From Candidatus Latescibacterota bacterium (GTDB lineage Bacteria > Latescibacterota > UBA2968): a stretch of DNA of 31,674 nt. The stretch covers positions 1 to 31,674 of the forward strand of contig JAYODI010000070.1 in the NCBI GenBank assembly GCA_038279365.1. Reading direction: 5' to 3'. The notes under the pieces are model-generated. The model was not told the DNA's origin, searched no databases, and saw only the letters and a list, made by a program, of their open reading frames with translations. This document shows positions 514 to 19,338 of the stretch, piece by piece. How positions within the stretch are numbered: the stretch's first letter is position 1; the number at the start of each line of letters is the position of its first letter. Made by a program: the position numbers and the translations under genes.

Positions 514-581
514 TCTGAGTGAGGCAAGTGACATTCTTGTCATGTGTTCCAAGGTGGTGGGTGTTTCTGGGAGGTTCGCTG

Positions 582-1517
582 ATGGTGTATCGCGCTACAG
601 ATGTGATGATTGGAAAGAGTCAGCCCATTCGAGAAGTTTTTAATATGGTTGAACGTGTGGCTTCTTCGAATGCCAATATTTTGATTCAGGGTGAAAGTGG
701 TGTGGGGAAAGAGTTGGTTGCACAAGCGATTCACCGTCAAAGCCCACGCAACAATGCACCTTTTGTGGTGATTGATTGCACGGCTTTGCAAGAGACTTTG
801 CTTGAGAGTGAGCTTTTTGGGCACGAACGCGGTGCTTATACGAGTGCCACCCATTTGAAATATGGGTTGTTTGAGGTTGCCCATGAGGGTGTTGTTTTAC
901 TGGATGAGATTGGCGAGTTGTGCCCCACAATTCAGTCTAAGCTGTTGCGTGTTTTAGAAACGGGCACCTTTCGCCGTGTTGGTGGCACGCGTGATATACA
1001 GGTTGATGTGCGTGTTTTGGCAGCAACAAATCGCAATCTCGATCAATTGGTGACCGAAGGATCTTTTAGAGAAGATTTGTATTATCGTCTTAATGTTGTC
1101 TCCATTCAGGTGCCTCCTTTGCGTGCGCGCCCACAAGATATTCCATATTTGGTGTGTCACTTTATTTCTCGTACAAATCAACATAGGGTGCAAGGTGTGT
1201 CTGATGAAGCAATGGCATTGTTGATGCGTTATCAATGGCCAGGTAATGTGCGAGAGCTCCGCAATATTATAGAGCGTGCGGCGTTGCTGTCTCAAAATAA
1301 GTGTATTCTTCCCGAAGATTTACCCATTGTTTTGAGAAATGGAAATGGGCTACAATCGCATAACAATTGTGGGTTTTATACGTTGAGAGAGGCTGAATGC
1401 AATCATATTGCAAATGTTTTGGCACAAGTTCGTGGACATCGCGCACGCGCTGCAGAGATATTGGGTATTAGTGAACGACAGTTGTATCGAAAGATCAATC
1501 AACACAAATTGCTGTAA
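582..1517 (+). CDS. sigma54-dependent transcriptional activator (AAA+ bEBP with Fis-type HTH), no N-terminal regulatory domain
   Basis: Walker A GESGVGKE, ESELFGHERGAYTSA (GAFTGA-loop variant), Walker B LLDEIGE, FREDLYYRLNV, WPGNVREL and C-terminal HTH (AAEILGISERQLY). Start placed at ATG 582 after GGAGG; the ORF track starts at GTG 519. Confidence 0.93.
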   Translation: MVYRATDVMIGKSQPIREVFNMVERVASSNANILIQGESGVGKELVAQAIHRQSPRNNAPFVVIDCTALQETLLESELFGHERGAYTSATHLKYGLFEVAHEGVVLLDEIGELCPTIQSKLLRVLETGTFRRVGGTRDIQVDVRVLAATNRNLDQLVTEGSFREDLYYRLNVVSIQVPPLRARPQDIPYLVCHFISRTNQHRVQGVSDEAMALLMRYQWPGNVRELRNIIERAALLSQNKCILPEDLPIVLRNGNGLQSHNNCGFYTLREAECNHIANVLAQVRGHRARAAEILGISERQLYRKINQHKLL

Positions 1518-1772: not shown

Positions 1773-2141
1773 ATGCCAGATATTCTGGTTGTTGATCGGG
1801 ACTTGAAGTCTTTAGGGGCAATGATACCGCGTATCCATACGTGGGCATATACAGTTGATGTTGCTGAGACATTGCAACAGGCAATAGAAATGTTGGATTT
1901 GCATGCATGTGGTATTGTCATATTAGCTGTGTATGTAGATGACTTTGACGCATCAGATGCAATTGCCACCATTTATCAGGCAAACCCCAAAGCGCGTATT
2001 GTGGCTGTGGGTGATCGGTCGTCGTTAGAATTGGAACGCGCAGTTCGCTTGTCAAAGATCTTTTATTACATGATTCGACCCATAGATTTTGATGAGCTCA
2101 AAGCTGTGGTAAGCCGAGCACTTGAAAAATCCATTAATTAA
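1773..2141 (+). CDS. Stand-alone atypical (pseudo-)receiver domain protein
   Basis: REC-fold pattern (ILVVD..., IVIL, IVAV, YYMIRPIDFDELKAVV). The phospho-acceptor Asp position is Ala (IVILA), the beta4 Thr/Ser is Gly and KP is RP. RBS GGAGG upstream. Confidence 0.8.
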   Translation: MPDILVVDRDLKSLGAMIPRIHTWAYTVDVAETLQQAIEMLDLHACGIVILAVYVDDFDASDAIATIYQANPKARIVAVGDRSSLELERAVRLSKIFYYMIRPIDFDELKAVVSRALEKSIN

Positions 2142-2235: not shown

Positions 2236-3369
2236 ATGAAACGAATGTGTTGGGTTTTTGGGATGGTTTATCTGTTGGGCGTTGTTTGGCCAAGTGGTGT
2301 TCAGGCACAATCGGTGTTGCTCGATGGCAATTTGTCTGCAGGTTATCAAGGTTTGGATGGCTTGGTAGATGTCAAAGCAGGTCAAAGGGTTGCCATAGAG
2401 GTATATGGCAAAGACGTTGCAGGAGTCAGTGGGTTTTCTGCTTTGGTGACCTATTCGGCTACGCAATTGCGTTTTGATGGGTTTTCGGCAGGTTCTCTCA
2501 TTCCTGGTTTCACGGGTTTAAACATTGTTCCATCTGCTGGCCAAATTGAAATTGGCGGTGCTTCCGTGAATGGTACTGCAAGTGTGTCTCAAGGCCGTTT
2601 GGGTGTGATCTATTTTCAAGTGTTAGAAGGTTTTTCGGGTAATGTGGCCGTATCACTCAGCCAAGGTCGCATTGTGAAGGGAGCTGCTTCCGAATCGATT
2701 GATACCCAAGCGCAGGTGGTGGTGGGGTTGGCTGTTTCTGGACCCGTGATGATTGATGGTGATGCCACACCTGGTTTGCAAGCCGCCCGTCGTGTTGTGG
2801 ATGTGAACGTCGGCGATGTCATTTCTGTTGAAGTTTATGGCCGAGGCATTTCAGGGGCATCGGGCTTTTCTGCTATTTTGAGTTATGACAAAGCGCAGTT
2901 GTCTTTTGAAGGGTTTGATGCTACAGAGATTATTCCTGGTTTTACGGGGTTGCGTCTTGATGCGGGTGGTACGGTTGAAATTGGTGGGGCGTCCGTAACG
3001 GGCACTGCCGGTTCGGCTGAAGGTCGTTTGGGTGTGTTGCGCTTTAAGGTGCTTCGGGGCTTTACAGGTACCACGTCTATTGAGTTGGTTGGTGGTCGCT
3101 TGACTTTGGGAGCAGACATCACCAACTATACCAGTGATTTGATTTTGTCTGTTTCGGGCATTGCTGGCGGTGGGCCGCTTGTCAAAACGCCCGATTTTAA
3201 CGGCAATGGTGTTGTTGATTTTCCCGACTTTTTGATGTTTGCTGGCGCTTTTGGCAAAAAGGTAGGGGATGTTGGCTTTCTGGAAGCACTCGATTTGAAT
3301 GACAGCGGTGCCATTGATTTTCCTGATTTTTTAAGTTTTGCCCAACAGTTTGGCAAATCTGTTGGTTAA
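2236..3369 (+). CDS. Secreted protein with two tandem cohesin-like beta-sandwich repeats and a C-terminal dockerin-like double EF-hand
   Basis: Signal peptide (...VQA|QS). Two about 145-aa repeats (VEVYG..G.SGFSA..SY...QL.F.GF.A...IPGFTGL....G..EIGGASV.GTA....GRLGV..F.VL.GF.G). C-terminal DFNGNGVVDFPDFLMFAGAFG / DLNDSGAIDFPDFLSFAQQFG. RBS AGGAGG. Confidence 0.75.
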   Translation: MKRMCWVFGMVYLLGVVWPSGVQAQSVLLDGNLSAGYQGLDGLVDVKAGQRVAIEVYGKDVAGVSGFSALVTYSATQLRFDGFSAGSLIPGFTGLNIVPSAGQIEIGGASVNGTASVSQGRLGVIYFQVLEGFSGNVAVSLSQGRIVKGAASESIDTQAQVVVGLAVSGPVMIDGDATPGLQAARRVVDVNVGDVISVEVYGRGISGASGFSAILSYDKAQLSFEGFDATEIIPGFTGLRLDAGGTVEIGGASVTGTAGSAEGRLGVLRFKVLRGFTGTTSIELVGGRLTLGADITNYTSDLILSVSGIAGGGPLVKTPDFNGNGVVDFPDFLMFAGAFGKKVGDVGFLEALDLNDSGAIDFPDFLSFAQQFGKSVG

Positions 3370-3475: not shown

Positions 3476-6184
3476 ATGAGATGGGGCAGGTGGTTTTTAA
3501 GCACGCTTCTGGTCTGTCTAACGCTTAGCCCAATGTGGGCGAGTGATACGCCAGATGAAGAAGTTATTATTATTCGAACGCCTTTAACCCGTATTCAGGT
3601 GGTGGCCGTGGCGCCACGTTTGATTAATGAGGGTTTGGTTGATACGACAATTGTTAAAGGTTCAACCAGTGGTTTACCCATTGTGGGTATTGGTGAACAA
3701 ACGTATGTTGCTGCCGCTGTTGGTGGGCTTAAGGATGTAACAGCATTTACATGGTCGATTACAAGCCAACCCACGGGATCGACGGCAACCTTAGTAGACG
3801 CACCCAAAGTGGGCAAAACATTTACACCCCAAGTAGCGGGTGATTATGTGATTTCATTGAAGATGACCCATGCGGGTGGCGATACCACATTGACCAAAAC
3901 GATTACTGCCGCAACCTATGTGGGTGCAGATCGTTGCGGGCAGTGCCACCCTCAAGCCAAAGCCGATTGGGAAAAAACCAAACACGCGCAAGCTTTGACC
4001 AAAAAGATCAGCGGTTTTCAAACGGGTCATTTCCAAGCGCGTTGTATCAGTTGTCACTCTGTAAGTAGCAACACATCGGCGGTGAATGTGCCCACTGCTG
4101 ATAATGGCAGCTTTTGGGATGTGGCCGCTGATTTGGGTTGGACATTTCCATCAGACTTAACCCAAGGCACGTGGCAAGAAGTGGGTAGTGGCGAAACACC
4201 ATCGGCTAATGCGATTGTTGACGGTGCTTGGAATATTGATCTCAAAAATTCAACATGGGATCAAATGCCAGCCGGGCTTAAAGCCATGGGCAATATCCAA
4301 TGCGAAAGCTGCCACGGTCCTGGTAGTGCTCATGCTGCAGGTGCGTTTGCACAAGCCAATAAGAAAATTGGTGACAGTTTGGAAAATGGTGTGTGTGCAA
4401 AGTGCCATGATGACGGTCACTATCATGTGCGCCCACACGAATGGGATCAATCTGGACATGGAAAAATATGGTCGCGTGACAGTGCCACCTGTGCACCTTG
4501 CCACTTAGGTAGTGGTTATGTACAGTCTGTGGTGAAAGGTCAAGAACTCACACCAGGTAGTTTTGAATTGGGTGTGACACAAACGTGTGCCACATGCCAC
4601 GATCCACACAGTGCAAAAAATGATCATCAAATTCGCGTGGCTGGTGTGGTTACATTAAACGCTTTGGTTCCTGATCCTGCGGGTAATCATACCAATACCA
4701 TCACGTCTTTTACAACACCCGATTTGGGTACAGGTGCCATGTGCGCCCAATGTCACCATTTGCGTCCTACACGTGATGTTCCTGGTGCACGTATTCACCA
4801 TTCGCATCAAGCTGAAATGGTGAATGGTATTGGGGGTTATCACTACCAAGGTGAAATTTATGGTTCGGGCAGTCACAAGTACATGAAAGACGCGTGTGCA
4901 AATTGTCATATGGCAGCCGCACCTGCGGGAACAGATGCCGTGTTGGGTAGCCATTCTTGGAAGATGCATGATGACAATGGTACGCCAGACAACATGGCTG
5001 ATGATCATTACAATACAACCGCGTGTTCAACATGTCATGGGCCACTGCAAAACTTCGATGTGAACGGTGCAACCACCGAAATCGAAGAAATGTTGACGGT
5101 ATTGGGTGGTTTGTTGCCCAGCAGTGGTGCAACAGAAGCTCAAACCAACGCCAAATGGAACCATGATTTTGTTGAAGCCGATGGCACAAATGGTATTCAC
5201 AACTTTGTGTATGCCCGCAAACTGTTGGCCGATGCACTTAAATCTGCCAGCCCCACCACCACACCTGCCCCATTGGCCGGTGACTTTAGTGGTGATGGCA
5301 AAGTAGACTTTACCGATATGTTTATGTTTACCTCGCAATTTGGTAAGAGTGCTTCTTCTACGGGTTGGGATGCGCGTTACGATTTGAGTGGCAACGGCGT
5401 GGTTGGCTTTACCGACTGGTTGATGTTCCTCGACAGCTTTGGCAAAACGTCTGCTTCGGGCAAACCGGTTTTGGTAAACAATGGCCGCAATATGGGTGGC
5501 GACTTTATGTTGGTGGGCTCCAATCGCACAGCCATCGACCAAGATCATATTGGTGTGACCTTGCGTGCGATCAATATGACCGAAATGCGCGGTTATGGTG
5601 TCTATGTCAAATATGACCCACAAGTGCTTGAGTTTGTGCGTGCGGTGCGTTCTGAAGAGGGTATGTTAACATCAGAAAACACTGGTGCATTGGCCGCCCA
5701 AGAAGTAGAAGAAGGTCGTTTGTTGATTGCCGATGCCACGGTTGGTAATGTGGCTGTTAAAGGGTCAGGTGCTTTGGTTGATTTGATTTTCCGTCGCATT
5801 GGCGCAGTTGCCCAATCTTCGGTACAAATTGATTTGGCCCAAATGGCCGACTTGAGCTTTGGCATCAATGTTCCTGGCGCACCGGTTCAGGAAGTTGTTT
5901 CTGCGCGTGAATATGCACTCACGCAAAACTTCCCGAATCCATTTAACCCAGCCACAAGCATTCGTTATAGCCTCGCTGCACCGGGTGATGTGAAGCTTGT
6001 GATTTACAATGCGCTCGGGCAAGAAGTGCGCACATTGGTTGACAACTATAAGTTGTCTGGCGAATATGCCGCGCAGTGGGATGCTCGGGATGAAGCTGGG
6101 CGCGCAGTGGCCAGTGGTGTGTATGTGTATCGCTTAGAGGTCAATGGCTTTATACAAACCCATCGTATGGTGTTGACGCGTTAA
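3476..6184 (+). CDS. Secreted nonaheme cytochrome c with N-terminal Ig-like domain, dockerin-like and cohesin-like modules and FlgD-Ig/T9SS-type C-terminal domain
   Basis: Signal peptide; 9 CXXCH (CGQCH, CISCH, CESCH, CAKCH, CAPCH, CATCH, CAQCH, CANCH, CSTCH); NrfA/c552-family-like tail DGTNGIHN; dockerin-like GDFSGDGKVDFTD / DLSGNGVVGFTD from about nt 5279; cohesin-like GYGVYVKYDPQVLEFV...GSGALVDLIF; C-terminal QNFPNPFNP...IYNALGQEVRTL...WDARDEAG..VASGVYVYRL (5912-6184). Confidence 0.88.
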   Translation: MRWGRWFLSTLLVCLTLSPMWASDTPDEEVIIIRTPLTRIQVVAVAPRLINEGLVDTTIVKGSTSGLPIVGIGEQTYVAAAVGGLKDVTAFTWSITSQPTGSTATLVDAPKVGKTFTPQVAGDYVISLKMTHAGGDTTLTKTITAATYVGADRCGQCHPQAKADWEKTKHAQALTKKISGFQTGHFQARCISCHSVSSNTSAVNVPTADNGSFWDVAADLGWTFPSDLTQGTWQEVGSGETPSANAIVDGAWNIDLKNSTWDQMPAGLKAMGNIQCESCHGPGSAHAAGAFAQANKKIGDSLENGVCAKCHDDGHYHVRPHEWDQSGHGKIWSRDSATCAPCHLGSGYVQSVVKGQELTPGSFELGVTQTCATCHDPHSAKNDHQIRVAGVVTLNALVPDPAGNHTNTITSFTTPDLGTGAMCAQCHHLRPTRDVPGARIHHSHQAEMVNGIGGYHYQGEIYGSGSHKYMKDACANCHMAAAPAGTDAVLGSHSWKMHDDNGTPDNMADDHYNTTACSTCHGPLQNFDVNGATTEIEEMLTVLGGLLPSSGATEAQTNAKWNHDFVEADGTNGIHNFVYARKLLADALKSASPTTTPAPLAGDFSGDGKVDFTDMFMFTSQFGKSASSTGWDARYDLSGNGVVGFTDWLMFLDSFGKTSASGKPVLVNNGRNMGGDFMLVGSNRTAIDQDHIGVTLRAINMTEMRGYGVYVKYDPQVLEFVRAVRSEEGMLTSENTGALAAQEVEEGRLLIADATVGNVAVKGSGALVDLIFRRIGAVAQSSVQIDLAQMADLSFGINVPGAPVQEVVSAREYALTQNFPNPFNPATSIRYSLAAPGDVKLVIYNALGQEVRTLVDNYKLSGEYAAQWDARDEAGRAVASGVYVYRLEVNGFIQTHRMVLTR

Positions 6185-6187
6185 TTT

Positions 6188-6225
6188 AAAAAGCAGGGCA
6201 GGCCAAGGTGCTTGCCCTGCTTTTT
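6188..6225 (+). terminator. Intrinsic terminator
   Basis: AAAAAGCAGGGCAGG ... CTTGCCCTGCTTTTT directly after the cytochrome stop codon. Confidence 0.8.
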
Positions 6226-6302
6226 ATTTGGATCGTGATTTCAAAAACGCCGTATGTGTCTATTGTCTCTGTGATGACAGATGCAACGGCGTTTCACTGT
6301 GA

Positions 6303-6318
6303 GAGACATTTGGGTCAC
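6303..6318. promoter_or_regulatory. Putative enhancer dyad
   Basis: GAGACATTTGGGTCAC aligns with GAGACATATATGTCAC at 396-411; about 110 bp upstream of P3 with an AT-rich spacer. Confidence 0.55.
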
Positions 6319-6423
6319 ACATGAGACGCAACATGGTGCATGAATAGATTTGATTTTTGTATTATAATTCTTTTTTTTGTTGTAAATATAGCGTTTTACA
6401 TTAATTACACATTTGAGAAGATC

Positions 6424-6440
6424 ATGGCACACAGATTGCG
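6424..6440 (+). promoter_or_regulatory. sigma54 (-24/-12) promoter P3
   Basis: ATGGCACACAGATTGCG: TGGCAC-N5-TTGC, a near-perfect consensus, 35 bp before ATG 6475. Confidence 0.82.
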
Positions 6441-6474
6441 ATGTTGCATGGCAAACAACACAGGTGAGGGCGTT

Positions 6475-7725
6475 ATGCAACGGTTTTGTATCGGTTTATT
6501 GTTCGTTTTGATGCTTGGCATGTCTGCTGAGAGTGCCACATTAAGTGGGCGCTTGACGTCATCGGCCTACTCTTGGCAAGCCCGTGAAGCTGGGGGCAGT
6601 GATGTCCGGCATTTGCGTTTGTATCAGGTTGCAATGCTGAATATGAGCCAAATGGGTGGTCAAGCCTTGTCATTGCACACACATTTGCAATTTTCGGGTG
6701 ACTTGCTCGATGAACGGAATGGGCGTGAACACTATCGCATTTACAGTGCTTATGCCAAGTGGGCACAAAATGGGTGGGATGTGCGCTTTGGCCGTCAACG
6801 TATTTATGGCGGGGTAGGTTTTGGCACCATTGATGGTGGTCGTGCAGCGGTGCAAGCAACCGATTGGTTACAACTCATTGGTTATGCGGGTATGCTTACA
6901 CCCGTGATCCCCGACGATGGCATTGGTACGTGGGATGAAGGGCATTTGTGGGGTGGGCAGGTGATGGTGGATGTGCGTGAGACTTATTTGACCATGAGTT
7001 ATGCTGAGCGCAGTCGTGAACCGCTGGCTTATTTGGGTGCGGGGCGATATTCTCAAGTGTCCATCAATCAAGAGGGTACACAATTTCGCCGATTGGGTTT
7101 TGATGCCCGACACGATTGGGAAAATGCATCGTTGTATGGGCGTGTTGATTTGGATGCCGATGCTTGGTCTGTGCAAGAATTTGAAGTGACAGGTGAGGCG
7201 CAAGTTTCGGATGCCATCGGTTTGGCTGCCGAATTTGAACATCGCAAACCCACTTTGTATCTCAATTCGATCTTGAGCGTGTTTGAAGTTCAAGACAACC
7301 AAGAAGTGGAAATGCGTGCAACCTATAAAGTAAATGATCAAGCCAAAGTATTGTTACGTGGCACACGTTCGTTTTTTGATGGTGATTCGGCATGGCATTT
7401 GGGGGCAGGACTGATTTGGGGGCAGGCTTATTTGGGGTATGCAAGGCGCGTGGGATATGGCGGTGACAACAATTCGTTTACCGCGTCTATCCAACACCCT
7501 GTTAATGAACAGTGGACGGTTCATGCCGATGGCAGTATGGCGAGTTACCGGTTATACGATACACAAGTGTCACGAAATCGGGCATGGACGGGCAGTGCTG
7601 GGGCGCGTTATCAGATGAAAAAAACGTTGAGTTTGGATGTGGAAGCACAAGTTTTAAACAATGCATTTTACAATCGTGATGCACGCATTTTTGTGCGGGG
7701 TTCTTTCTGGTTTTTCAAACGGTGA
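6475..7725 (+). CDS. Outer-membrane beta-barrel, putative porin of a porin-cytochrome conduit
   Basis: Signal peptide (MQRFCIGLLFVLMLGMSAESA); alternating amphipathic beta-strands; aromatic C-terminal strand (IFVRGSFWFFKR); no heme motifs; immediately precedes multiheme genes. Start moved from 6340 to 6475 (RBS GAGGG, downstream of P3). Confidence 0.78.
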   Translation: MQRFCIGLLFVLMLGMSAESATLSGRLTSSAYSWQAREAGGSDVRHLRLYQVAMLNMSQMGGQALSLHTHLQFSGDLLDERNGREHYRIYSAYAKWAQNGWDVRFGRQRIYGGVGFGTIDGGRAAVQATDWLQLIGYAGMLTPVIPDDGIGTWDEGHLWGGQVMVDVRETYLTMSYAERSREPLAYLGAGRYSQVSINQEGTQFRRLGFDARHDWENASLYGRVDLDADAWSVQEFEVTGEAQVSDAIGLAAEFEHRKPTLYLNSILSVFEVQDNQEVEMRATYKVNDQAKVLLRGTRSFFDGDSAWHLGAGLIWGQAYLGYARRVGYGGDNNSFTASIQHPVNEQWTVHADGSMASYRLYDTQVSRNRAWTGSAGARYQMKKTLSLDVEAQVLNNAFYNRDARIFVRGSFWFFKR

Positions 7726-7732
7726 TGATGGC

Positions 7733-8893
7733 ATGAAACAGATGATGCTTTGGATGTTTGTGGCCGTTCTTTCTTTGGGATGGCAAAGTGCTTTGGCACA
7801 AGAACCCTTTGTGCCGTCTACGGCAATTAAATTTAGTCATAAAGACCATGTCGATGCTGCAGAGTTGGAATGTGCGGTGTGCCACGATGTGAGCGAAAGC
7901 ACGTCTGCACGTGATCGCTTATTGCCTGCCAAAGCTGTTTGTGCAGAGTGCCACGATGTAACCGATCAGGATGAATGTGCGTTTTGCCATACTGACATGA
8001 GTCAGTTGGGCAAAATTCAATCGGTTGATTCCGATATCTTGTTTGCTCATAAAGATCACTTAGCTTACGACGGGGTCGATTGTGCCACATGTCATGCAGG
8101 CGTTGAAAAGTCTGTGAAGACGGGTGGGTCGCATATGCCCAATATGCCTACGTGTTCCACATGTCACAACGATGCACAAGCGCCCAAAGCGTGTGCGGCG
8201 TGTCATACCGATTTGAGCAATTTGCGCCCCGAGTCGCATGTTTTGGGCTGGACAAAAGGTCATGGACGGCGGGTGCGTTTGGGCGATACATCGTGTTTAC
8301 CTTGTCATAGTGAACCCGACTGCCAAGAATGTCACGAAGGTGCAAAGTTGACGGTTGCAGTGCCGCCATTGGGCTCACAGGCTACATTTGCCCCACAAAG
8401 CAGCGGGCAGGCGGGTTTGATTTTGAAGAATGTTCATGAATTGAATTATCGTTTTACACATGCTTTAGAAGCCAAAGGCAAAACAAAAGATTGTGCCAAG
8501 TGTCACGAGCAAGATACATTTTGTGCCGATTGCCATCAGGCCGATGTGGGGTTTGTGAAACCCGCTTGGCATGGCGGTGCTGATTGGGGGGCCATTGCAG
8601 GGGCCGTGGGTACAGGCGGTGGTCGCCACGCCACATTGGCTCGGCGCGATATGAATCGGTGTGCATCTTGTCATGCTGCAGTGGGTGATGACCCCACGTG
8701 TATGTTGTGCCATATGGATCGCACACCCGGGTTGGGCAACGACCCTAAGACACATGGACCTCGTTTTAAGTCGCAAGTAGGTGAAGGTGATTTCCACAAC
8801 AATCCCAATTCACTTTGTTTTAACTGTCACACATTTACAGGACCAGCCGGTGGGGCTGGGTTCTGTGGGTATTGTCATGGGCCGCAAAATTAA
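7733..8893 (+). CDS. Periplasmic 14-heme cytochrome c (c3/c7-like N-terminal modules)
   Basis: Signal peptide (..SALA|QE); 14 CXXCH counted; FSHKDH/FAHKDH c3/c7-type His motifs; start at ATG 7733, 7 nt after the porin stop. Confidence 0.9.
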   Translation: MKQMMLWMFVAVLSLGWQSALAQEPFVPSTAIKFSHKDHVDAAELECAVCHDVSESTSARDRLLPAKAVCAECHDVTDQDECAFCHTDMSQLGKIQSVDSDILFAHKDHLAYDGVDCATCHAGVEKSVKTGGSHMPNMPTCSTCHNDAQAPKACAACHTDLSNLRPESHVLGWTKGHGRRVRLGDTSCLPCHSEPDCQECHEGAKLTVAVPPLGSQATFAPQSSGQAGLILKNVHELNYRFTHALEAKGKTKDCAKCHEQDTFCADCHQADVGFVKPAWHGGADWGAIAGAVGTGGGRHATLARRDMNRCASCHAAVGDDPTCMLCHMDRTPGLGNDPKTHGPRFKSQVGEGDFHNNPNSLCFNCHTFTGPAGGAGFCGYCHGPQN

Positions 8894-9953
8894 ATTTATC
8901 GTGCTGTGTGGTTTGGTGGCGTTGGTGGGGTGCAGTGATGTCAAAAATGTACCCACTGGACCGACCACAACATCTGCTTTAAGTGTTCATACACCAGGAT
9001 GGATCAATCCTGCTGCATCTGATTTTCACGGTGCGGCCTTGGCCAAGGTCGGATATGATATGTCGGGTTGTCGAACATGCCATGGTGCAGATTATGCTGG
9101 TGGCATTTCTGAAAGCTCATGTATCAAATGCCACCCTGGCACGCCCGAAGACTGTTCGACCTGTCATGGGCAACCGCCTGCCGCACCGCACCCCCAAGTG
9201 GCCAATTGTAGCTTGTGCCATGGCCAAGTGGTGGATGCATCAGGCACCATTATTGACCCATCGTTGCATATTAATGGTCAGGTCAATGTGCGCTTAGGAC
9301 ATCCGCAAGGCTTTGCCAACCCATCATCGGAGAATTTTCATGGTGTGGCCATTAAGGCGGCGGGTTGGTCGATGGCAGAATGTCAAAGTTGCCACGGGCA
9401 AGATTATCGGGGAGGCGTTGCAAGCGATGTGTCGTGCTTGACGTGTCATCAAAAGAGCCCCGAAGATTGTTCGACCTGCCACGGCGATATGAATAATCCG
9501 GCACCTCCTGAAGATATTGCAGGCAATACGGCAACCACATTGCGCACAGTAGGTGCCCATCAATCGCATTTGTCGGGTGGTTTCTTTGCCGGTGGTATTG
9601 CTTGCTCCGAGTGTCATACGGTGCCCACACATTATCTTGACCCAGGGCATGTGGATTCTGATGAACCTGCCGAAGTCATTTTTGGTGCGTTGGCCAAGAC
9701 CCGTGGTTTAAGCCCTGTTTGGGATGGTGAAACATGCAGCAATACTTATTGTCATGGTTCTGCAAAACCCAAGTGGACGTCTGTTGGCACTGGGGAATCG
9801 ATTTGTTCAACGTGTCATGCCATTCCGCCACCACTTCCACACCCACAAACACAAGTGTCGTGTGCAACGTGTCACCCGCGCGTGGTGGATGAAAATTTGA
9901 TTATTATAGATAAGACCTTGCACATCAATGGTCAGGTAGATGTAGGGCCGTAA
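8877..9953 (+). CDS. Multiheme cytochrome c lipoprotein (10 CXXCH + 1 CX4CH)
   Basis: MGRKIKFIVLCGLVALVG|C lipobox; 10 CXXCH plus CSNTYCH followed by CSTCH (Geobacter-type CxxxxCH...CxxCH module); start overlaps the upstream gene by 17 nt. Confidence 0.88.
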   Translation: MGRKIKFIVLCGLVALVGCSDVKNVPTGPTTTSALSVHTPGWINPAASDFHGAALAKVGYDMSGCRTCHGADYAGGISESSCIKCHPGTPEDCSTCHGQPPAAPHPQVANCSLCHGQVVDASGTIIDPSLHINGQVNVRLGHPQGFANPSSENFHGVAIKAAGWSMAECQSCHGQDYRGGVASDVSCLTCHQKSPEDCSTCHGDMNNPAPPEDIAGNTATTLRTVGAHQSHLSGGFFAGGIACSECHTVPTHYLDPGHVDSDEPAEVIFGALAKTRGLSPVWDGETCSNTYCHGSAKPKWTSVGTGESICSTCHAIPPPLPHPQTQVSCATCHPRVVDENLIIIDKTLHINGQVDVGP

Positions 9954-10003
9954 TACTGTGAAAGATGTGAAGGGTGTCGCATTTCCTAATCAGGAGGTGT
10001 GTG

Positions 10004-11908
10004 ATGAGGCGGTGGACGCTGGGTGGGGTGATGGTGTTGTTGATGGTGGGCATTGTTGGGGCAGAGATTGCGAATGAAGATTGTTTGGAATGCCATAGCG
10101 ATCCTGAACTGACCAATGCGGCAGGACAATTGATGTGGGTTGATCCGGCGCATTTAGAAAAATCGGTGCATGAGGGGTATACGTGTGTGGAATGCCATAC
10201 GTCTATTACCGAGTTGCCTCATGCAGAAGAAGGATTGCCCAAGGTTGATTGCCAAGTGTGCCATGAAGAGGCGCAAGAAGTTTTTGAAACCAGTGCACAC
10301 GGGCTTGCGGTGGCACGCGGTGATGAAGATGCGCCCAATTGTGCAGATTGCCATGGCAGCCATGGTATTTTGGCGGTGGACGATACGGAATCGGCTGTGT
10401 TTCACCAAAATTTGGTGTATATGTGCGCGCGTTGTCATGCCAACACCACGATGAATGAAACACACAAATTTTCTGTTGAGGCACCCGTTGAAGCTTATTG
10501 GCAAAGCACGCATTTTCGCAATTTAACAGACAGCAAAAAGCATTATGCCGATTGTGTCGATTGTCATGGTAGCCATGGTTTAAAGGCTGCATCAGATCCT
10601 TCGTCAACCATCTTTTGGCGCAATATTCCACAAACATGTGGCAAGTGTCACAGTGATATTCAACATACGTATCAGGCCAGTGTTCATGGCAAAGCTGTAG
10701 ATCGAGGTGTGCGCCAATCGCCTGTGTGCACAGACTGTCATGGCGAGCACGAAATTCGTGGCCCCAAAGACCCCAAGTCGTTGGTAAATAAAGCGCATGT
10801 TTCTGAAACAACATGTGTGTGGTGCCACGAGTCGGTGCGTGTGACACAAAAGTTTGGGTTGGCACAAGGGCGCATGCAGACCTATTTGGATAGTTACCAC
10901 GGTTTGGCCAACAAGGGTGGGTCAACGGTGGTGGCCAATTGTGCCAGTTGTCATGGTGTGCACGATATTTTGCCCTCAACTGATCCCGCCTCTTTGATTC
11001 ACAAAGATCGCTTGGGTGAAACGTGCGGCAAATGCCATCCAGGTGTGGGCAATTTGGTGTCGTTGGGGCCCGTGCATGTGAATATGACGTATGAGAATGG
11101 TGGCAGCAATATCACCGATTATGTGCGTCAGTTTTATATGTTGCTGATTTTGTCTACCATCGGTTTTATGTTGGTACACAACGGGTTGGATTTGGCACGC
11201 AATTTTAGGTTGCGCGAAGGACTGCCCCACGGTGATGATTTTTTGCGGTTTACCGTTTCAGAACGTTTACAACATGCCACCATGGCGTTGTCATTTATGG
11301 TGCTGGCCTATAGTGGATTTGCTTTGCAATTTCCCAATGCGTGGTGGGCAGCACCGTTTGGTGGGTGGTTGTCTGAGAGTGAAGAGCTTCGTCGTTTGAT
11401 TCACCGTTTTGCGGCTGTGGCGATGGTGGGTGTTTGTGGGTTTCATGCTGCATATTTGGTTGTTACTGGGCGTGGGCGACAACAGTTGATGGCGATGGCA
11501 CCCAAGCTACGCGATTTTCGCGATTTTGGCCAGATGGTGCGTTACTACCTCAAGCGAACAGACAAACAACCCCGATTTGCACGTTTTAGTTATATCGAAA
11601 AGTTAGAATATTGGGCGCTGGTGTGGGGCAGTGTGGTGATGACGGTGACGGGGTTTGCACTTTGGTTTGCAAATATCTCGTTGCGTTATGTGCCCAAGTG
11701 GGTGTTGGACGTTGCCACGGTGATTCATTATTACGAAGCGTGGTTGGCAGTTTTGGCCATTATTGTGTGGCATTTTTACTGGGTGATTTATAACCCGCGT
11801 GTTTATCCAATGAGTTTGGTGTGGTTGACTGGGCGTATGTCGAAGAAGGCCATGGAACACGAACATCCTGAAGAGTTGGAAGAAGAGAAGAAGCGAATAG
11901 ACGAATAG
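10004..11908 (+). CDS. CbcL-like inner-membrane quinol oxidoreductase: 11-heme c domain fused to an FdnI/HydC-type diheme cytochrome b
   Basis: 11 CXXCH, then about 5 TM helices with cytochrome-b His motifs (ERLQH, RLIHRF, GFH, VIHYYE, VWHFY) and RFSYIEKLEYW; RBS AGGAGG before ATG 10004. Confidence 0.85.
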   Translation: MRRWTLGGVMVLLMVGIVGAEIANEDCLECHSDPELTNAAGQLMWVDPAHLEKSVHEGYTCVECHTSITELPHAEEGLPKVDCQVCHEEAQEVFETSAHGLAVARGDEDAPNCADCHGSHGILAVDDTESAVFHQNLVYMCARCHANTTMNETHKFSVEAPVEAYWQSTHFRNLTDSKKHYADCVDCHGSHGLKAASDPSSTIFWRNIPQTCGKCHSDIQHTYQASVHGKAVDRGVRQSPVCTDCHGEHEIRGPKDPKSLVNKAHVSETTCVWCHESVRVTQKFGLAQGRMQTYLDSYHGLANKGGSTVVANCASCHGVHDILPSTDPASLIHKDRLGETCGKCHPGVGNLVSLGPVHVNMTYENGGSNITDYVRQFYMLLILSTIGFMLVHNGLDLARNFRLREGLPHGDDFLRFTVSERLQHATMALSFMVLAYSGFALQFPNAWWAAPFGGWLSESEELRRLIHRFAAVAMVGVCGFHAAYLVVTGRGRQQLMAMAPKLRDFRDFGQMVRYYLKRTDKQPRFARFSYIEKLEYWALVWGSVVMTVTGFALWFANISLRYVPKWVLDVATVIHYYEAWLAVLAIIVWHFYWVIYNPRVYPMSLVWLTGRMSKKAMEHEHPEELEEEKKRIDE

Positions 11909-12026
11909 ACGAATAGACGAATGGACGAATGGACGAATAGACGAATGGGCGAATAGACGAATGGGCGAATGGGCGAGGTGGGTTTTGATTCGCAGATTCG
12001 CAGTTTCGTAAATTCGTTGATTCGCC
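11894..12026. repeat. 8-bp tandem repeat array with an inverted partner array
   Basis: 10 copies of CGAATRGR (11894-11973), then 5 copies of an 8-mer with a (A/T)TTCG core (11987-12026), the reverse complement of CGAAT. Confidence 0.9.
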
Positions 12027-12038
12027 AGAGAGGTTTAA

Positions 12039-13544
12039 ATGAATACGAAACGTTTGCCCGATATATTTTATAACTGGTGGAGTGTTGTTGGTGCTTTTGT
12101 TGCTGTCGCATCTTTTTGCGTGATTGTGCTTTTGTTATTGATAGATATTTTTGTTCAAGGCACCACACTTTATTTGGGCTTGTTGACGTTTATGATTTTG
12201 CCTAGCTTTTTGGTGGCTGGGTTGGTGATGATTGCATTGGGTGCGGTATTAGAGCGTCGTCGCATTGCACGCGGGGTTGTTTCTACCTTTCCAAGACAAC
12301 TGAATATTGATTTTGAAAATGCCAAGCATCGCAATGCAATTGTGATTTGGACGATTGGAACGGCTATTTTTTTATTGGGTACGGCTATTGGTACTTATAA
12401 AGCCTATCAGACAACGGAGTCGGTTGTGTTTTGTGGTGAGTTGTGCCACAATGTGATGTCACCCGAATACACAGCCTATCAAGTTTCTCCCCATGCCAAT
12501 GTATCTTGTGCAGAATGTCATATTGGGCCAGGGGCTGAGTGGTTTGTAAAGGCCAAGTTGAGTGGTTTGCATCAGGTCTATGCGGTCTTGACAGATTCAT
12601 ATCAAAAGCCAATTCCAACACCCATTGAAAATTTGCGCCCAGCACGTGAAACGTGTGAACATTGTCATTGGCCCGAAAAGTTTTTTGGTGGGCGTCAAAA
12701 GATATTGCCCCATTTTTTATCCGACGAAGAAAATACACCCTATCCCATTTCTATGCTTTTAAATATTGGTGGGGGCGGAAAAGGTGGCCACGCCGAAGGG
12801 ATTCACTGGCATGTGGCAAAGAGTCATCATATGGAGTACATTGCAACAGATCATGATCGCAAAGATATTGTGTGGGTGCGCTTGACCAAAGACGATGGCT
12901 CTGTGGCCGAATATACAATGGGTGGAAAGCCGTTAGAAGCCGAGCTGAAAACAGCCCATGCACCTCGTTCTGTAGATTGTTTGGATTGCCACAATCGCCC
13001 GAGTCATAATTATCGCTCGCCTATTAAAATAGTTAATCAGGCATTGCACTTGGGTAATATGGATGTGTCTTTGCCCTATATTAAACGCGAGGCCGTGACG
13101 GTTCTGGATAAGGTGTATGAAACAACACCCGATGCCATGCAGGCGATAGAGGCACATCTCACAAAGTTTTACAAAGACGAATATCCCGATTTGTTGAAAG
13201 AAAAGTCGGATGCTGTAACAAAGTCGATCGCGGCTGTTCAAAAGGTGTATCGCGAAAACTTTTTTCCTGAGATGAAGGTGTCTTGGAAAGCCTATCCCGA
13301 TCAAGTAGGACATTCAGAATTTATTGGGTGTTTTCGTTGTCACGGATCTGAGTTGGAAACGGCAGATGGTGGCACAATCAGTAAGGATTGTAATTTGTGC
13401 CACACTATTTTATCGCAGGGGACAAAGGATTTTGCCGCTTTGAGGCCGGGAGGGATAACCTTTCGTCATCCGGTGGATATTGATGGGGCAGAATTGGAGG
13501 CCAATTGCACAGAATGTCATGAAGGTGGCTCAGAATTGTATTGA
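12039..13544 (+). CDS. imcH: ImcH-like heptaheme inner-membrane cytochrome (NapC/NirT-family N-terminus)
   Basis: Three N-terminal TM segments; NapC/NirT-like FCGELCH...SPHANVSCAECH...KAKLSGL...CEHCH; 6 CXXCH + 1 CX3CH = 7 hemes in 501 aa, matching the Geobacter ImcH architecture. Confidence 0.78.
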   Translation: MNTKRLPDIFYNWWSVVGAFVAVASFCVIVLLLLIDIFVQGTTLYLGLLTFMILPSFLVAGLVMIALGAVLERRRIARGVVSTFPRQLNIDFENAKHRNAIVIWTIGTAIFLLGTAIGTYKAYQTTESVVFCGELCHNVMSPEYTAYQVSPHANVSCAECHIGPGAEWFVKAKLSGLHQVYAVLTDSYQKPIPTPIENLRPARETCEHCHWPEKFFGGRQKILPHFLSDEENTPYPISMLLNIGGGGKGGHAEGIHWHVAKSHHMEYIATDHDRKDIVWVRLTKDDGSVAEYTMGGKPLEAELKTAHAPRSVDCLDCHNRPSHNYRSPIKIVNQALHLGNMDVSLPYIKREAVTVLDKVYETTPDAMQAIEAHLTKFYKDEYPDLLKEKSDAVTKSIAAVQKVYRENFFPEMKVSWKAYPDQVGHSEFIGCFRCHGSELETADGGTISKDCNLCHTILSQGTKDFAALRPGGITFRHPVDIDGAELEANCTECHEGGSELY

Positions 13545-13577
13545 GTTTGTCGATGAACAACCTGAAAGGGGGATGTT

Positions 13578-14129
13578 ATGAAACGGTGGAAAAAAGGTTT
13601 TTGGATGGCGGTATCGCTTTTGGTGATTCCGACACTGGCCTCTGGAGATGATGTGGCAGAAAAGCCACAATATATTGGTTCTGAATCTTGTGCAAAGGTG
13701 TGTCACAAGACGGCCAAGCAAGGTGAACAGTTGCGCATTTGGCAAGAATCATCCCATGCCAAAGCGTGGGAAACCTTGGCGAGTGAGAAGGCGCTTGCTA
13801 TTGCCAAAGCCAAAGGTATTGCAGATCCGCAAAAGAGTGATCAATGTGTAAAATGCCACACAACTGCACATGGGGTTGCTGCCGATTTGTTAGATGCAAA
13901 GTTTTCACATACCGAAGGTGTGGGATGTGAATCTTGCCACGGTCCAGGGAGTTTGTATAAAAAACGCAGTGTGATGCAAAATCGCGAAGCGGCTGTGGCT
14001 GCTGGTTTGTTGCTTCCCGATGAAAAAACCTGTGTGAAATGTCATAATGCAGAAAGCCCAACATTTAAACCGTTTAATTATGAAGAACGGTGGAAACTGA
14101 TTGCGCACGGAAAACCTGCCGCAGAATAG
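13578..14129 (+). CDS. Periplasmic tetraheme cytochrome, c554-like
   Basis: Signal peptide; YIGSESCAKVCH (CX3CH), W..S.HAKA, CVKCH, GVGCESCHGPGS, CVKCH. Confidence 0.85.
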   Translation: MKRWKKGFWMAVSLLVIPTLASGDDVAEKPQYIGSESCAKVCHKTAKQGEQLRIWQESSHAKAWETLASEKALAIAKAKGIADPQKSDQCVKCHTTAHGVAADLLDAKFSHTEGVGCESCHGPGSLYKKRSVMQNREAAVAAGLLLPDEKTCVKCHNAESPTFKPFNYEERWKLIAHGKPAAE

Positions 14130-14148
14130 TTGGGGTTATATTGATGTG

Positions 14149-14188
14149 AAAGAGGGGTTACATCTTGTCGATGTAACCCCTCTTTTTT
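14149..14188 (+). terminator. Intrinsic terminator ending the EET operon
   Basis: Perfect 16-bp stem AAAGAGGGGTTACATC/GATGTAACCCCTCTTT plus T-tail. Confidence 0.88.
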
Positions 14189-14317
14189 GTGCCATAAAGA
14201 AGTTATCTCTGTCTTGATTTATTGGTTTGCCATCTTTCTGATGGGTACCATTCGCGTGATGTTTGATCTGTAATGAAGAAGGCATAAAAACGATAAATCA
14301 ATTTATGAGAAAGACAT

Positions 14318-14362: not shown

Positions 14363-14449
14363 TGGTGCCGAAGGAGGGAATCGAACCCACACGTCCCGAA
14401 GGACACTGGATTTTGAATCCAGCGCGTCTACCAGTTCCACCACTTCGGC
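14363..14449 (-). tRNA. tRNA-Leu (anticodon CAA)
   Basis: GCCGAAG...CTTCGGC-ACCA acceptor stem, anticodon arm CTGGA-TTCAAAA-TCCAG, long variable arm, TTCGA T-loop; 87 nt. Confidence 0.96.
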
Positions 14450-14524: not shown

Positions 14525-15091
14525 TTAAAAAGGCATGTTTTCAGATCTGGGTGGGCCCAGAATCTCATTGTAAACAATGGCTTGGCGAACACTTTGTTTA
14601 GAAAAGTCCAGTTTTAACCTCTGTTTACGCTTTGTTTTGGGTTTTATGGTCTGTTTTAAACGTGACAGGCGGCTATTGGGGTCATTTTCATTATAGGCCA
14701 AAGATTCCTCTATGGGGCGTTTAGCGCGCACGGTTTGAAATTCTGGGCCTTTTGGGGTTTCGTGCACGGGCCTCTTGCCCTGTATTTCACGGAATTCTGG
14801 GCCTTTGGCAGACTCATCAACAGATATTTTGCCTTTTACCTCTTGAAATTCTTGAACAACGGGCTTGGGTTCGGGCTTTTTTTCTTTTTGAGGCGCACCT
14901 AAGAGAATTTCCCACTCCGATAGGTCTACATCTTCTTCAAATGGGTCATTGCGACCGACTTGTGTGGATGGATGTTTGCGCTGTAGTTTGGATTCATCGG
15001 GTTCTGGGTTGCGATGTTCTTGCCATTTTTTGAAAAGGGTTGAAATGGCACTAAAGAGCAAGAATAAGACAACAAGTATTTGGGCATCCAT
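14525..15091 (-). CDS. YqfB-like membrane-anchored hypothetical protein
   Basis: N-terminal TM helix (MDAQILVVLFLLFSAIS), low-complexity middle, C-terminal RQAIVYNEILGPPRS; third gene after nfeD-floA. Start placed at ATG 15091. Confidence 0.65.
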   Translation of the reverse strand: MDAQILVVLFLLFSAISTLFKKWQEHRNPEPDESKLQRKHPSTQVGRNDPFEEDVDLSEWEILLGAPQKEKKPEPKPVVQEFQEVKGKISVDESAKGPEFREIQGKRPVHETPKGPEFQTVRAKRPIEESLAYNENDPNSRLSRLKQTIKPKTKRKQRLKLDFSKQSVRQAIVYNEILGPPRSENMPF

Positions 15092-15198
15092 AAGATTAGT
15101 CCAGGGAGAGCAATAAAAGATAATGGTGTAAAGCGTTTTAACCGTGAAATGAGCAAGAGGTGACAATGGGATGTGTTCCCGTTGTCACCTCTGATTAT

Positions 15199-16173
15199 CT
15201 ATTGATTGTCTTCTTCGGTTTCATCTGCAATGCCTTCACGCATGCTGGTGTCGGCTTGGATATTGCGCATGCGATAGTAATCCATAATGCCCAAGTTGCC
15301 ACTGCGGAACGCTTCTGCCATGGCACGGGGTACTTCGGCTTCAGCTTCAACCACGCGGGCGCGCATTTCTTGCACGCGAGCTGTCATTTCTTGTTCTAAT
15401 GCAACGGCCATGGCGCGGCGTTCTTCGGCACGGGCCTGAGCAATATTTTTATCGGCTTCGGCCTGATCCATTTGCAATTTGGCCCCAATGTTGTCACCCA
15501 CATCCACATCAGCAATATCGATGGAGAGAATTTCAAATGCGGTACCTGAATCTAAACCTTTGTTCAAAACTGTTTTTGAAATCATATCGGGGTTTTCTAA
15601 GACCGATTTGTGTGTTTCTGCTGACCCGATGGTGGTGACAATGCCTTCACCTACGCGGGCCATGATGGTCTCTTCACCTGCACCACCCACCAATCTTTCA
15701 ATGTTGGCACGCACTGTAACGCGCGATGTGGCTTTGACCTGAATGCCATCTTTGGCCACGGCGGTGACCATGGGTGTGGAGATGACTTTGGGATTGACGC
15801 TTACTTGTACGGCTTCGAGCACATCTCGGCCAGCAAGGTCGATGGCAGCGGCACGCTCGGGGGTGAGGTTAATGCCGGCTTTGTCGGCGGCAATGAGGGC
15901 TTTGACCACATTTTCAACATCGCCACCGGCCAAAAAGTGGGCTTCGAGAAAGGCGGTCGAAATTTCCAAACCCGCTTTGGTGGCGTTGATTTGAGAGCCT
16001 AAGATGGTGCTTGGAGGCACACGGCGCAAGCGCATCCCAACGAGTTCGCCAATGCCAATGTGAACGCGTGCGGCAATGGCGGAAATCCAGAGGCCTACTG
16101 GAATGAAGTAAAGGAAGATGGATAAAAGTAAAAATCCACCAATGACGATGAGTAACAGTAAGACGGCTTCCAT
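15199..16173 (-). CDS. floA: Flotillin-like protein FloA (YqfA/UPF0365)
   Basis: [73 protein letters not shown]. Confidence 0.93.
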
Positions 16174-16263
16174 TGATCATATCTCCTAAAGAGGCCAGGG
16201 ATTACAGGTCAAATGCTTTGTTTCTGACCTGTGACTTGCAGACCTGTGACTTACGACTGTTGT

Positions 16264-18953: not shown

Positions 18954-19029
18954 GGCGGCATAGCTCAGTTGGTAGAGCAGCGGAATCATAATCCGTAGGT
19001 CGGGGGTTCAAGTCCCTCTGCCGCTACCA
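18954..19029 (+). tRNA. tRNA-Met (anticodon CAT, probably elongator)
   Basis: GGCGGCA...TGCCGCT-ACCA acceptor, anticodon arm GCGGA-ATCATAA-TCCGT, TTCAAGT T-loop; 76 nt; lacks initiator C1:A72 and the three G-C pairs. Ile2 cannot be fully excluded. Confidence 0.93.
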
Positions 19030-19077: not shown

Positions 19078-19338
19078 GTGTTTGATTGTTTTGGGCGTGT
19101 ATGTATTTGATACAGCAGTAAATTGACTTGGTCAAAAGACTTACCTTATGTGGTGTTTTGGCGATGGGGGTGAATGTTATTTTGAGGATTTTGTGTATAA
19201 AATATTGTTAATAATATTATTATGATATTTTTTTGCAGTGGCCTGACTATTGCTTTTATATTTTTGTTTGCAGAGAAGTGAATCTCATAACCATACATCA
19301 TTTGCGTATCCAACGATTGAGAGGATGGATATCGTTCT

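Follow-up and report, generated by a model that had tools for sequence, protein, structure and literature searches.

We analysed a contig of a Candidatus Latescibacterota bacterium (GenBank assembly GCA_038279365.1, contig JAYODI010000070.1, whose full 31,674 nucleotides (nt) are called the window below) and found that a block of six genes at 6475-14129 very probably encodes a real trans-envelope electron conduit of the porin-cytochrome (Pcc) kind. We think it fairly likely that this conduit exports respiratory electrons and is switched by sigma-54, probably under anoxia. A first reading made from the letters alone (the sequence-only reading) had proposed a porin-cytochrome conduit here, and this is upheld, since the pore is modelled as a 22-strand barrel, a cytochrome is modelled in its lumen, the gene set is conserved and the host carries Ccm genes. 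The predicted products of the block, with lengths in amino acids (aa), are as follows:

6475..7725, + strand: outer-membrane beta-barrel porin, 416 aa (AlphaFold2 model, fold matches)
7733..8893, + strand: 14-haem periplasmic cytochrome (motif count, domain matches)
8877..9953, + strand: 11-haem lipoprotein (start ATG at 8877, lipobox Cys19, TIGR01904)
10004..11908, + strand: CbcL-type quinol oxidoreductase (motifs, PF01292, aligned His)
12039..13544, + strand: ImcH, 501 aa (helices, motif register, homology)
13578..14129, + strand: periplasmic tetrahaem cytochrome, c554-like (domain match)

The earlier count of six co-oriented genes with 47 c-haem motifs, or 56 with a nonahaem cytochrome encoded upstream, was reproduced: the block holds 44 CxxCH motifs and three atypical ones, and the nonahaem at 3476-6184 contributes a further nine. 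From the 14-haem protein to the tetrahaem, in gene order, the motifs are 14 CxxCH; 10 CxxCH and one CX4CH; 11 CxxCH; six CxxCH and one CX3CH; and three CxxCH and one CX3CH. In shuffled controls (1000 per protein), the mean number of CxxCH was at most 0.11 and the maximum two.

The pore is related to the Geobacter Pcc porins

We modelled the porin with AlphaFold2 (AF2) from 36 homologues and obtained a 22-strand barrel without a plug (predicted local distance difference test score, pLDDT, 86.8). Fold searches with this model returned generic barrels (ushers, TonB-dependent receptors), which bears out the beta-barrel on which the sequence-only reading depended; no named Pcc porin was among the listed matches, and absence from these lists excludes nothing. 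The porin had no Pfam or NCBIfam match and, since no such model exists, routine annotation misses it.

We then looked for relatives by sequence. The porin resembles Geobacteraceae porins that lie in the OmbB layout (23-24% pairwise identity, 357-417 aa, E 2e-8 to 4e-12), and a profile of 145 sequences, which may include unnamed Geobacter-like rows, finds porins in four of five Geobacteraceae genomes (E 1e-29 to 1e-67) and matches 1255 proteins at 50% clustering. The neighbours of the Geobacteraceae porins show the OmbB-OmaB-OmcB, ExtEFG and ExtABCD layouts, these labels being assigned by layout (the Ext layouts from the available text of PMC6148476). In a quick tree of 42 porins, those of the Fibrobacterota-Chlorobiota-Bacteroidota (FCB) group formed one clade (SH-like approximate likelihood ratio test, SH-aLRT, 99), with long-branch warnings and a sister group that was not settled. 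Judged by these matches, the porin is kin of the Geobacter Pcc porins OmbB, ExtB and ExtE. An MtrB identity was ruled out by the 22 strands, by the lack of a match to the MtrB family models and by the lack of a sequence link, as the profile search of the PDB did not return MtrB. Hence, of the two porin-cytochrome architectures first invoked, kinship with the Geobacter one stood in this profile comparison (profile, 22 strands) and kinship with MtrCAB did not.

A 14-haem cytochrome may fill the barrel

The 14-haem protein, whose gene lies 7 nt downstream of the porin gene, carries 14 CxxCH. Its residues 25-158 resemble c7/ActA-type proteins and form a six-haem N-terminal extension, and residues 148-327 match a 231-aa octahaem protein adjoining a Geobacteraceae porin (locus L145; 27%, 181 aa, E 2e-12). 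OmaB is itself an octahaem cytochrome. As predicted from these matches, the protein is a six-haem periplasmic extension followed by a C-terminal eight-haem OmaB-type module. A DmsE/MtrA-type decahaem identity was rejected on the 14 haems and on the lack of a TIGR03508 match.

A model of the porin together with the 14-haem protein scored 0.71, compared to 0.00 for the best of three controls; the mark for such models is reached by 116 of 157 solved pairs and by two of 215 mismatched pairs. The runs shared at least 57% of their contacts, with a partner pLDDT of at least 66. All 22 strands are contacted, solely by partner residues 147-365, the very stretch in which the homology to the octahaem protein beside the Geobacteraceae porin lies, and the first six haems make no confident contacts. 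The model, which thus places the C-terminal module in the lumen, supports the idea that the 14-haem protein sits inside the barrel, as the sequence-only reading had supposed.

Two quinol oxidases are encoded with the conduit

ImcH has been defined as a protein of ~495-519 aa with three N-terminal helices and CX3CH plus six CX2CH motifs. The 12039..13544 product has 501 aa, three N-terminal helices and exactly this set of motifs, which start at 132/157/206/314/431/451/490, compared to 132/156/205/311/428/448/486 in GSU3259, and it is 40-43% identical over ~495 residues to records named Geobacter or Geobacteraceae. By prediction, it is ImcH. Whereas mtrAB was not found beside imcH in a published survey (PMC6295460), ImcH is here encoded inside a Pcc operon.

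By definition, the CbcL/MtrH/MtoC proteins combine, in one chain, a periplasmic domain of 3-23 CX2CH motifs and a cytochrome b domain in which His residues are conserved; they have six transmembrane helices, a few members having four or five. The protein of the block has 11 CxxCH and an FdnI-like cytochrome b domain (PF01292) with His424, His467, His575 and His590, and it aligns with a 619-aa nonahaem Desulfuromonadales protein (27%, 568 columns, E 7e-52), including the four membrane His. It shows four clear hydrophobic segments and one weaker segment, and the chain stops before a sixth helix, so that it probably has five helices. The tetrahaem cytochrome at 13578..14129 is a candidate periplasmic shuttle.

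In G. sulfurreducens, ImcH serves acceptors above -100 mV and CbcL those between -100 and -210 mV (PMC13591261, in its available part). ImcH has been implicated solely in quinol oxidation, and the relatives of CbcL run both ways. The direction of flow had been considered unreadable from the sequence; with the identities of ImcH and of the CbcL-type protein, it can be argued after all, and outward flow is favoured because of the role of ImcH.

The lipoprotein and the secreted nonahaem may lie at the surface

The lipoprotein carries 10 CxxCH and one CX4CH, a TIGR01904 domain and a lipobox Cys19 with Ser at +2, which is conserved in relatives; the +2 sorting rule derives from E. coli. It is 27% identical to cytochromes in the ExtG position of Geobacteraceae loci and had no match in the PDB. 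The statement that every compartment is covered depends on a putative surface exposure of this lipoprotein. Type II secretion is the export route used for Shewanella MtrC, and GspF/PilC was not found in the genome, which is 98.5% complete; a secretin gene is present nevertheless (G000:C70:13992-16460, or L164:4993-7461). In one relative, tandem repeats bring the lipoprotein to 33 or more haem motifs and run off the contig end (L034:1-3234).

A further cytochrome is encoded upstream of the block, next to a possible tether:

2236..3369, + strand: secreted cohesin-cohesin-dockerin protein without haem, candidate tether (domain matches)
3476..6184, + strand: nonahaem cytochrome of the OcwA/OmhA family, separate transcription unit (profile; dockerin-like, cohesin-like and type IX C-terminal domains)

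The family profile of the nonahaem finds OcwA (PDB 6I5B, E 2.9e-39) and OmhA (6QVM, E 2.6e-23), as well as NrfA and octahaem nitrite reductases. As a single sequence, the whole protein matches OcwA weakly (E 6e-10), and a search with its haem region alone did not return OcwA; an AF2 model made without an alignment (pLDDT 34) was not used. The protein has a signal peptide, and its C-terminus matches TIGR04183 at 33.9 bits (cut-off 23). The genome encodes SprA and seven PorV-family genes that exceed the cut-off in a single stretch. It is plausible that the nonahaem is type IX secretion cargo, and such export is plausible for a terminal cytochrome since GspF/PilC was not found. The type IX tail occurs on 59 of 89 nonahaem homologues, the tailed ones coming from sources named Latescibacterota, KSB1, Calditrichota, Ignavibacteria and Marinimicrobia. 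In six distinct loci, tailed copies are encoded close to the conduit. The open-access literature yielded no report of a type IX-exported nonahaem in such a system.

Across the genome, 54 proteins have a dockerin-like EF-hand pair, 16 have a cohesin-like domain and seven end in a dockerin-cohesin-type IX tail, an abundance that suggests a lineage-wide surface assembly system. A 'cellulosome' specific to cytochromes is weakened as an idea, as the dockerin-cohesin-tail arrangement is a general cassette of the lineage and is present in just 18 of the 89 nonahaem homologues.

A sigma-54 site and a strong terminator flank the block

The control signals and other features of the window that bear on the block are as follows:

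519..1517, + strand: sigma-54 activator with AAA+ and helix-turn-helix domains, candidate regulator (own sigma-54 site at 498-512)
1773..2141, + strand: stand-alone receiver domain (sigma-54 site at 1706-1720 upstream)
6187..6227, + strand: hairpin terminator separating the nonahaem gene from the porin operon (hairpin 6187-6226, -28.5 kcal/mol)
6307..6331, no strand: imperfect palindrome, candidate activator (enhancer) site, kept in the same-genus relative, as judged from these two sequences
6425..6439, + strand: sigma-54 -24/-12 promoter site, 35 nt 5' of the porin start (perfect match, recurrence in relatives)
11894..11976, + strand: 8-bp tandem repeat, ~9.6 copies, spanning the stop codon of the CbcL-type gene (16 such arrays genome-wide)
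14148..14190, + strand: intrinsic terminator, 17-bp hairpin and T tract (hairpin 14148-14186, -28.6 kcal/mol)

A promoter, P3, and a strong terminator had been placed on either side of the block. The terminator was confirmed, as was a promoter site, which is of the sigma-54 type and recurs in relatives; a sigma-70-like promoter was not found in 6184-6475, and over the window the sigma-70 scan was at chance level (26 sites, 26.5 expected). This promoter and terminator scan overlooked both real hairpins. In the hairpin at 6187-6226, the pairing is preserved by a two-sided change in the same-genus relative.

Sigma-54 promoters follow a -24/-12 consensus. A single perfect site in the window is within chance, as 18 of 100 shuffles also gave one. 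A similar site lies 5' of the porin in eight of ten related loci of the same type, four of the eight coming from one genus, compared to a background of 4-6% of random 600-nt windows; in a second locus type, described below, the count is 0/9. RpoN is encoded in the genome. The activator at 519..1517 lacks a sensor domain and has a GAYTSA loop instead of GAFTGA. The stand-alone receiver at 1773 may have its sensor in a GAF-PAS hybrid histidine kinase (19339-21960), 5' of which lies a further sigma-54 site (19239-19253) that is near-identical to that at 1706. Since 16 arrays of its unit occur genome-wide, the 8-bp repeat is probably not specific to the conduit system.

The intergenic distances across the six genes are 7, -17, 50, 130 and 33 nt, and the same gene order is found in a same-genus relative (locus L031). 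We infer that the six genes form one co-transcribed unit. One metatranscriptome run contained 35% of the sequence words, and its contigs touch 26 of 30 bins plus intergenic DNA. This run shows neither transcription nor co-transcription, because intergenic DNA is touched, no listed contig spans the operon and 12101-13200 is without coverage. Downstream of the block lie tRNA-Leu(CAA) (14363-14449), an ordinary NfeD-FloA flotillin operon (14525-17607) and tRNA-Met(CAT) (18954-19029).

The host and its relatives

The closest named homologues (porin 81%, ImcH 85%) provide the taxonomic placement that had been lacking, namely Ca. Latescibacterota. The genome bin encodes CcmA/B/C/E/F/H, MqnA/D-family genes and NrfAH, and its alternative complex III (ACIII) adjoins a haem-copper oxidase. 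Of the two maturation routes considered, Ccm is present, and ResB-type maturation was not found in the genome. The gene content suggests that the host respires facultatively and can mature these cytochromes.

The genome also holds a second porin-cytochrome cluster, of the PCC3 type (G000:C2:7400-8135 and C193:1-6237; loci L166 and L165). One of its cytochromes is rich in repeats and is divided between two contigs with a 55-nt overlap (9 and 11 motifs). The other products are a 20-haem cytochrome, a barrel-like protein, a 4Fe-4S/FAD oxidoreductase and, on contig C193, a membrane protein that bears SGXXG as well as two WX3HX13H motifs.

Among 168 Latescibacterota genomes, the porin was found in 27, ImcH in seven, the CbcL-type gene in 14 and the nonahaem in 13. 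The porin co-occurs with ImcH in 7/7 and with the CbcL-type gene in 13/14 genomes, which are kin and so not independent. We examined the loci of 20 of the 27 porin-bearing genomes: an 11-14-haem partner is present in 19 and a multihaem lipoprotein in 10, gene order is shuffled, and ImcH is adjacent in 2/20. The second locus type (L041-L049, n = 9, three of the genomes being single-contig) shares the porin and the 14-haem protein; in eight of the nine there is a lipoprotein bearing two atypical CX3-4CH cytochrome c-like domains. This locus is a candidate inward or differently wired conduit.

Beyond the phylum, the loci of 80 of 345 ImcH relatives, many of which run into contig ends, include 15 with a porin of this family in the flank and nine with all six genes, seven of these nine being from Bacteroidota. 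Tetrahaem, porin, multihaem and lipoprotein genes stand together in three of five further genomes reached via Ignavibacteria and Bacteroidia records. The ESM Atlas returned unnamed clusters only. Several relatives carry inserted Rieske/cytochrome b genes and a CcmF-type gene (L070:11589-13120 and 19227-21464; L035:5838-6941).

Export of electrons and its alternatives

Under the export reading, sigma-54 would switch the conduit on, probably under anoxia, and menaquinol would be oxidised by ImcH or by the CbcL-type protein; their Geobacter counterparts are used with acceptors of high and mid potential. Directly or by way of the tetrahaem shuttle, the electrons would enter the 14-haem protein at its six N-terminal haems, then run through the eight-haem OmaB-type module within the 22-strand barrel and arrive at the surface, where the 11-haem lipoprotein and the OcwA-type nonahaem, which is exported separately, would receive them. 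These may hand them on to an external acceptor, be it Fe or Mn oxides, humics, conductive particles or a partner cell.

Several points weigh against this scheme. No haems were included in the model of the complex, which may also be biased by the solved MtrAB complex of barrel and cytochrome. With 7.4% contamination in the bin, some genes on other contigs may come from a different organism. With GspF/PilC not found, the Shewanella MtrC-type route appears absent and the surface display of the lipoprotein is unexplained, and the neighbouring sigma-54 activator bears the variant loop. CbcL/MtoC relatives also occur in Fe(II) oxidisers, without a distinguishing feature (PMC6295460), and no ImcH or CbcL match was found in the nine genomes with the second locus type. 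Genetic tests of any member of this FCB clade were not found in the literature, as far as its accessible text goes. Mineral reduction is not assured, because Ignavibacterium album carries a cluster of like layout yet, in the accessible part of PMC4245776, showed no growth on Fe(III) or Mn(IV) oxides.

The I. album result also bears on an alternative in which the electrons do not reach solids: the lipoprotein would face the periplasm, and the 47-56 haems would store charge or pass electrons to soluble acceptors (sulfur species, selenium oxyanions, nitrogen oxides) in oxic-anoxic shifts. That GspF/PilC was not found would suit this, as would the nitrite or NO reductase activity of OcwA-family proteins in vitro and the NrfA and octahaem nitrite reductase matches of the nonahaem profile. 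We consider it unlikely, since the modelled cytochrome fills the barrel lumen, a better fit to a wire than to a solute channel, the nonahaem has a secretion tail with SprA and PorV present, and Geobacter depends on related conduits for solid acceptors (available text of PMC6148476). If the conduit is real but chiefly imports electrons, from Fe(II), reduced humics or partner cells, the CbcL-type protein would reduce quinone, and ACIII with the haem-copper oxidase, which adjoin in the genome, would be the sink. The Fe(II) oxidisers with CbcL/MtoC homologues and the nine relatives that have the pore and the 14-haem protein without an ImcH or CbcL match point this way; ImcH in the operon, an equivalent cluster from an anode-enriched organism (PMC8258643, as far as available) and the iron-oxide reductase activity of OcwA in vitro point the other way, and we rate import as quite unlikely. 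Finally, the block might be two or more units, with a constitutive porin trio and separately controlled quinol oxidases as passengers. The shuffled order in relatives, where ImcH is so rarely adjacent, and the 130-nt gap before imcH, which contains a repeat folding at -42.8 kcal/mol, would fit; however, the single upstream sigma-54 site, the single strong downstream terminator, the other gaps of at most 50 nt and the unchanged order in L031 make this highly improbable.

A wider proposal, which we make tentatively and put at somewhat short of an even chance, is that FCB bacteria have a self-contained, potential-tuned export system. ImcH, CbcL and one Pcc wire would be encoded in one sigma-54 operon, and an OcwA-type terminal reductase would be delivered by type IX secretion, held by dockerin-cohesin in Latescibacterota, replacing the type II route of Shewanella.

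Comparison with known systems

Pcc clusters have been described as a porin with 18-22 transmembrane strands, an adjacent periplasmic cytochrome with 5-14 haems that is homologous to OmaB, and an outer-membrane multihaem lipoprotein (PMC4245776, in its accessible part). The porin homology, the 22 strands and the adjacent 14-haem OmaB-type cytochrome of the window agree with this description. The locus is not PCC3 or PCC4 (PMC5566968), as none of the six genes encodes the ~300-aa inner membrane protein that is marked by SGXXG and two WX3HX13H motifs.

In Geobacter sulfurreducens, the likeness is to OmbB-OmaB-OmcB, ExtABCD and ExtEFG, all three layouts being matched by the porin profile, and to ImcH and CbcL; the Ext layouts, and the need for related conduits with solid acceptors, are taken from the available text of PMC6148476. 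Here, however, the porin is only 23-25% identical and belongs to its own FCB clade, the periplasmic cytochrome is six haems longer and both quinol oxidases are in the conduit operon. With Shewanella MtrCAB, the block shares the cytochrome-in-barrel principle, and its porin matches the fold of MtrB generically (Z 16.3, root-mean-square deviation 5.2, 350 aligned, rank 23 among barrels), but MtrB has 26 strands (PMC12133095) compared to 22 here, there is no MtrB sequence match and the block has no DmsE/MtrA-type decahaem.

Closer in layout is the Pcc cluster IALB_1840-1837 of I. album, with a periplasmic cytochrome, a porin, a 400-aa 14-haem protein and an outer-membrane cytochrome that has an atypical motif; the likeness is one of layout alone, and the accessible part of PMC4245776 mentions no ImcH, CbcL or secreted nonahaem for it. 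An Ignavibacteriales genome (locus L159) encodes a 192-aa tetrahaem, a 427-aa porin, a 404-aa 14-haem protein and a lipoprotein, all homologous to those of the window. Bacteroidetes_1, abundant on an anode, has a seven-gene cluster of six multihaem cytochromes and one barrel (JNFKJAOJ_00295-00301; PMC8258643, as far as available), which by eye corresponds to the CbcL-type, ImcH, tetrahaem, porin, 14-haem, lipoprotein and nonahaem-family genes and shares short motifs including GGGxHATLAxRD and RPxxxxNSIxSVF. Its gene order differs, its genes are called hypothetical, with ImcH and CbcL unnamed in that text, and the 422 aa of its lipoprotein-like nonahaem-family member are too few for the tailed form, which has 902 aa. 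Such clusters are also described for Ignavibacteria on anodes (PMC7399161, available part). OcwA and OmhA are surface cytochromes of Gram-positive iron reducers and are characterised by two pentacoordinate catalytic haems with conserved His; the nonahaem has nine haems, as in OcwA, and matches by profile, but its host is diderm and it carries dockerin, cohesin and a type IX tail.

The accessible texts on Caldithrix (PMC5317091), Melioribacter (PMC3534657, PMC5492636) and Effluviviacota (PMC11323493) contained no description of such a cluster, and the open-access literature, to which our search was confined, no report of one from Latescibacterota. The core architecture is known, hence unsurprising in itself: it is a new member of a described Pcc branch that is itself functionally untested. 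Electron export of the Geobacter type is thereby extended to a phylum seen as one that degrades polysaccharides, with the pore in 27/168 genomes and ImcH in 7/168. If borne out, a multihaem cytochrome exported by type IX secretion would be a new route for placing redox proteins extracellularly, and one operon with both quinol oxidases and the wire offers a compact test of the ImcH/CbcL electron hand-over, a question left open in the available part of PMC4251993. In summary, compared to the known systems, the new elements are an OcwA-family nonahaem with a type IX tail in a genome without detectable GspF/PilC, the phylum, and the presence of both quinol oxidases within the conduit operon.

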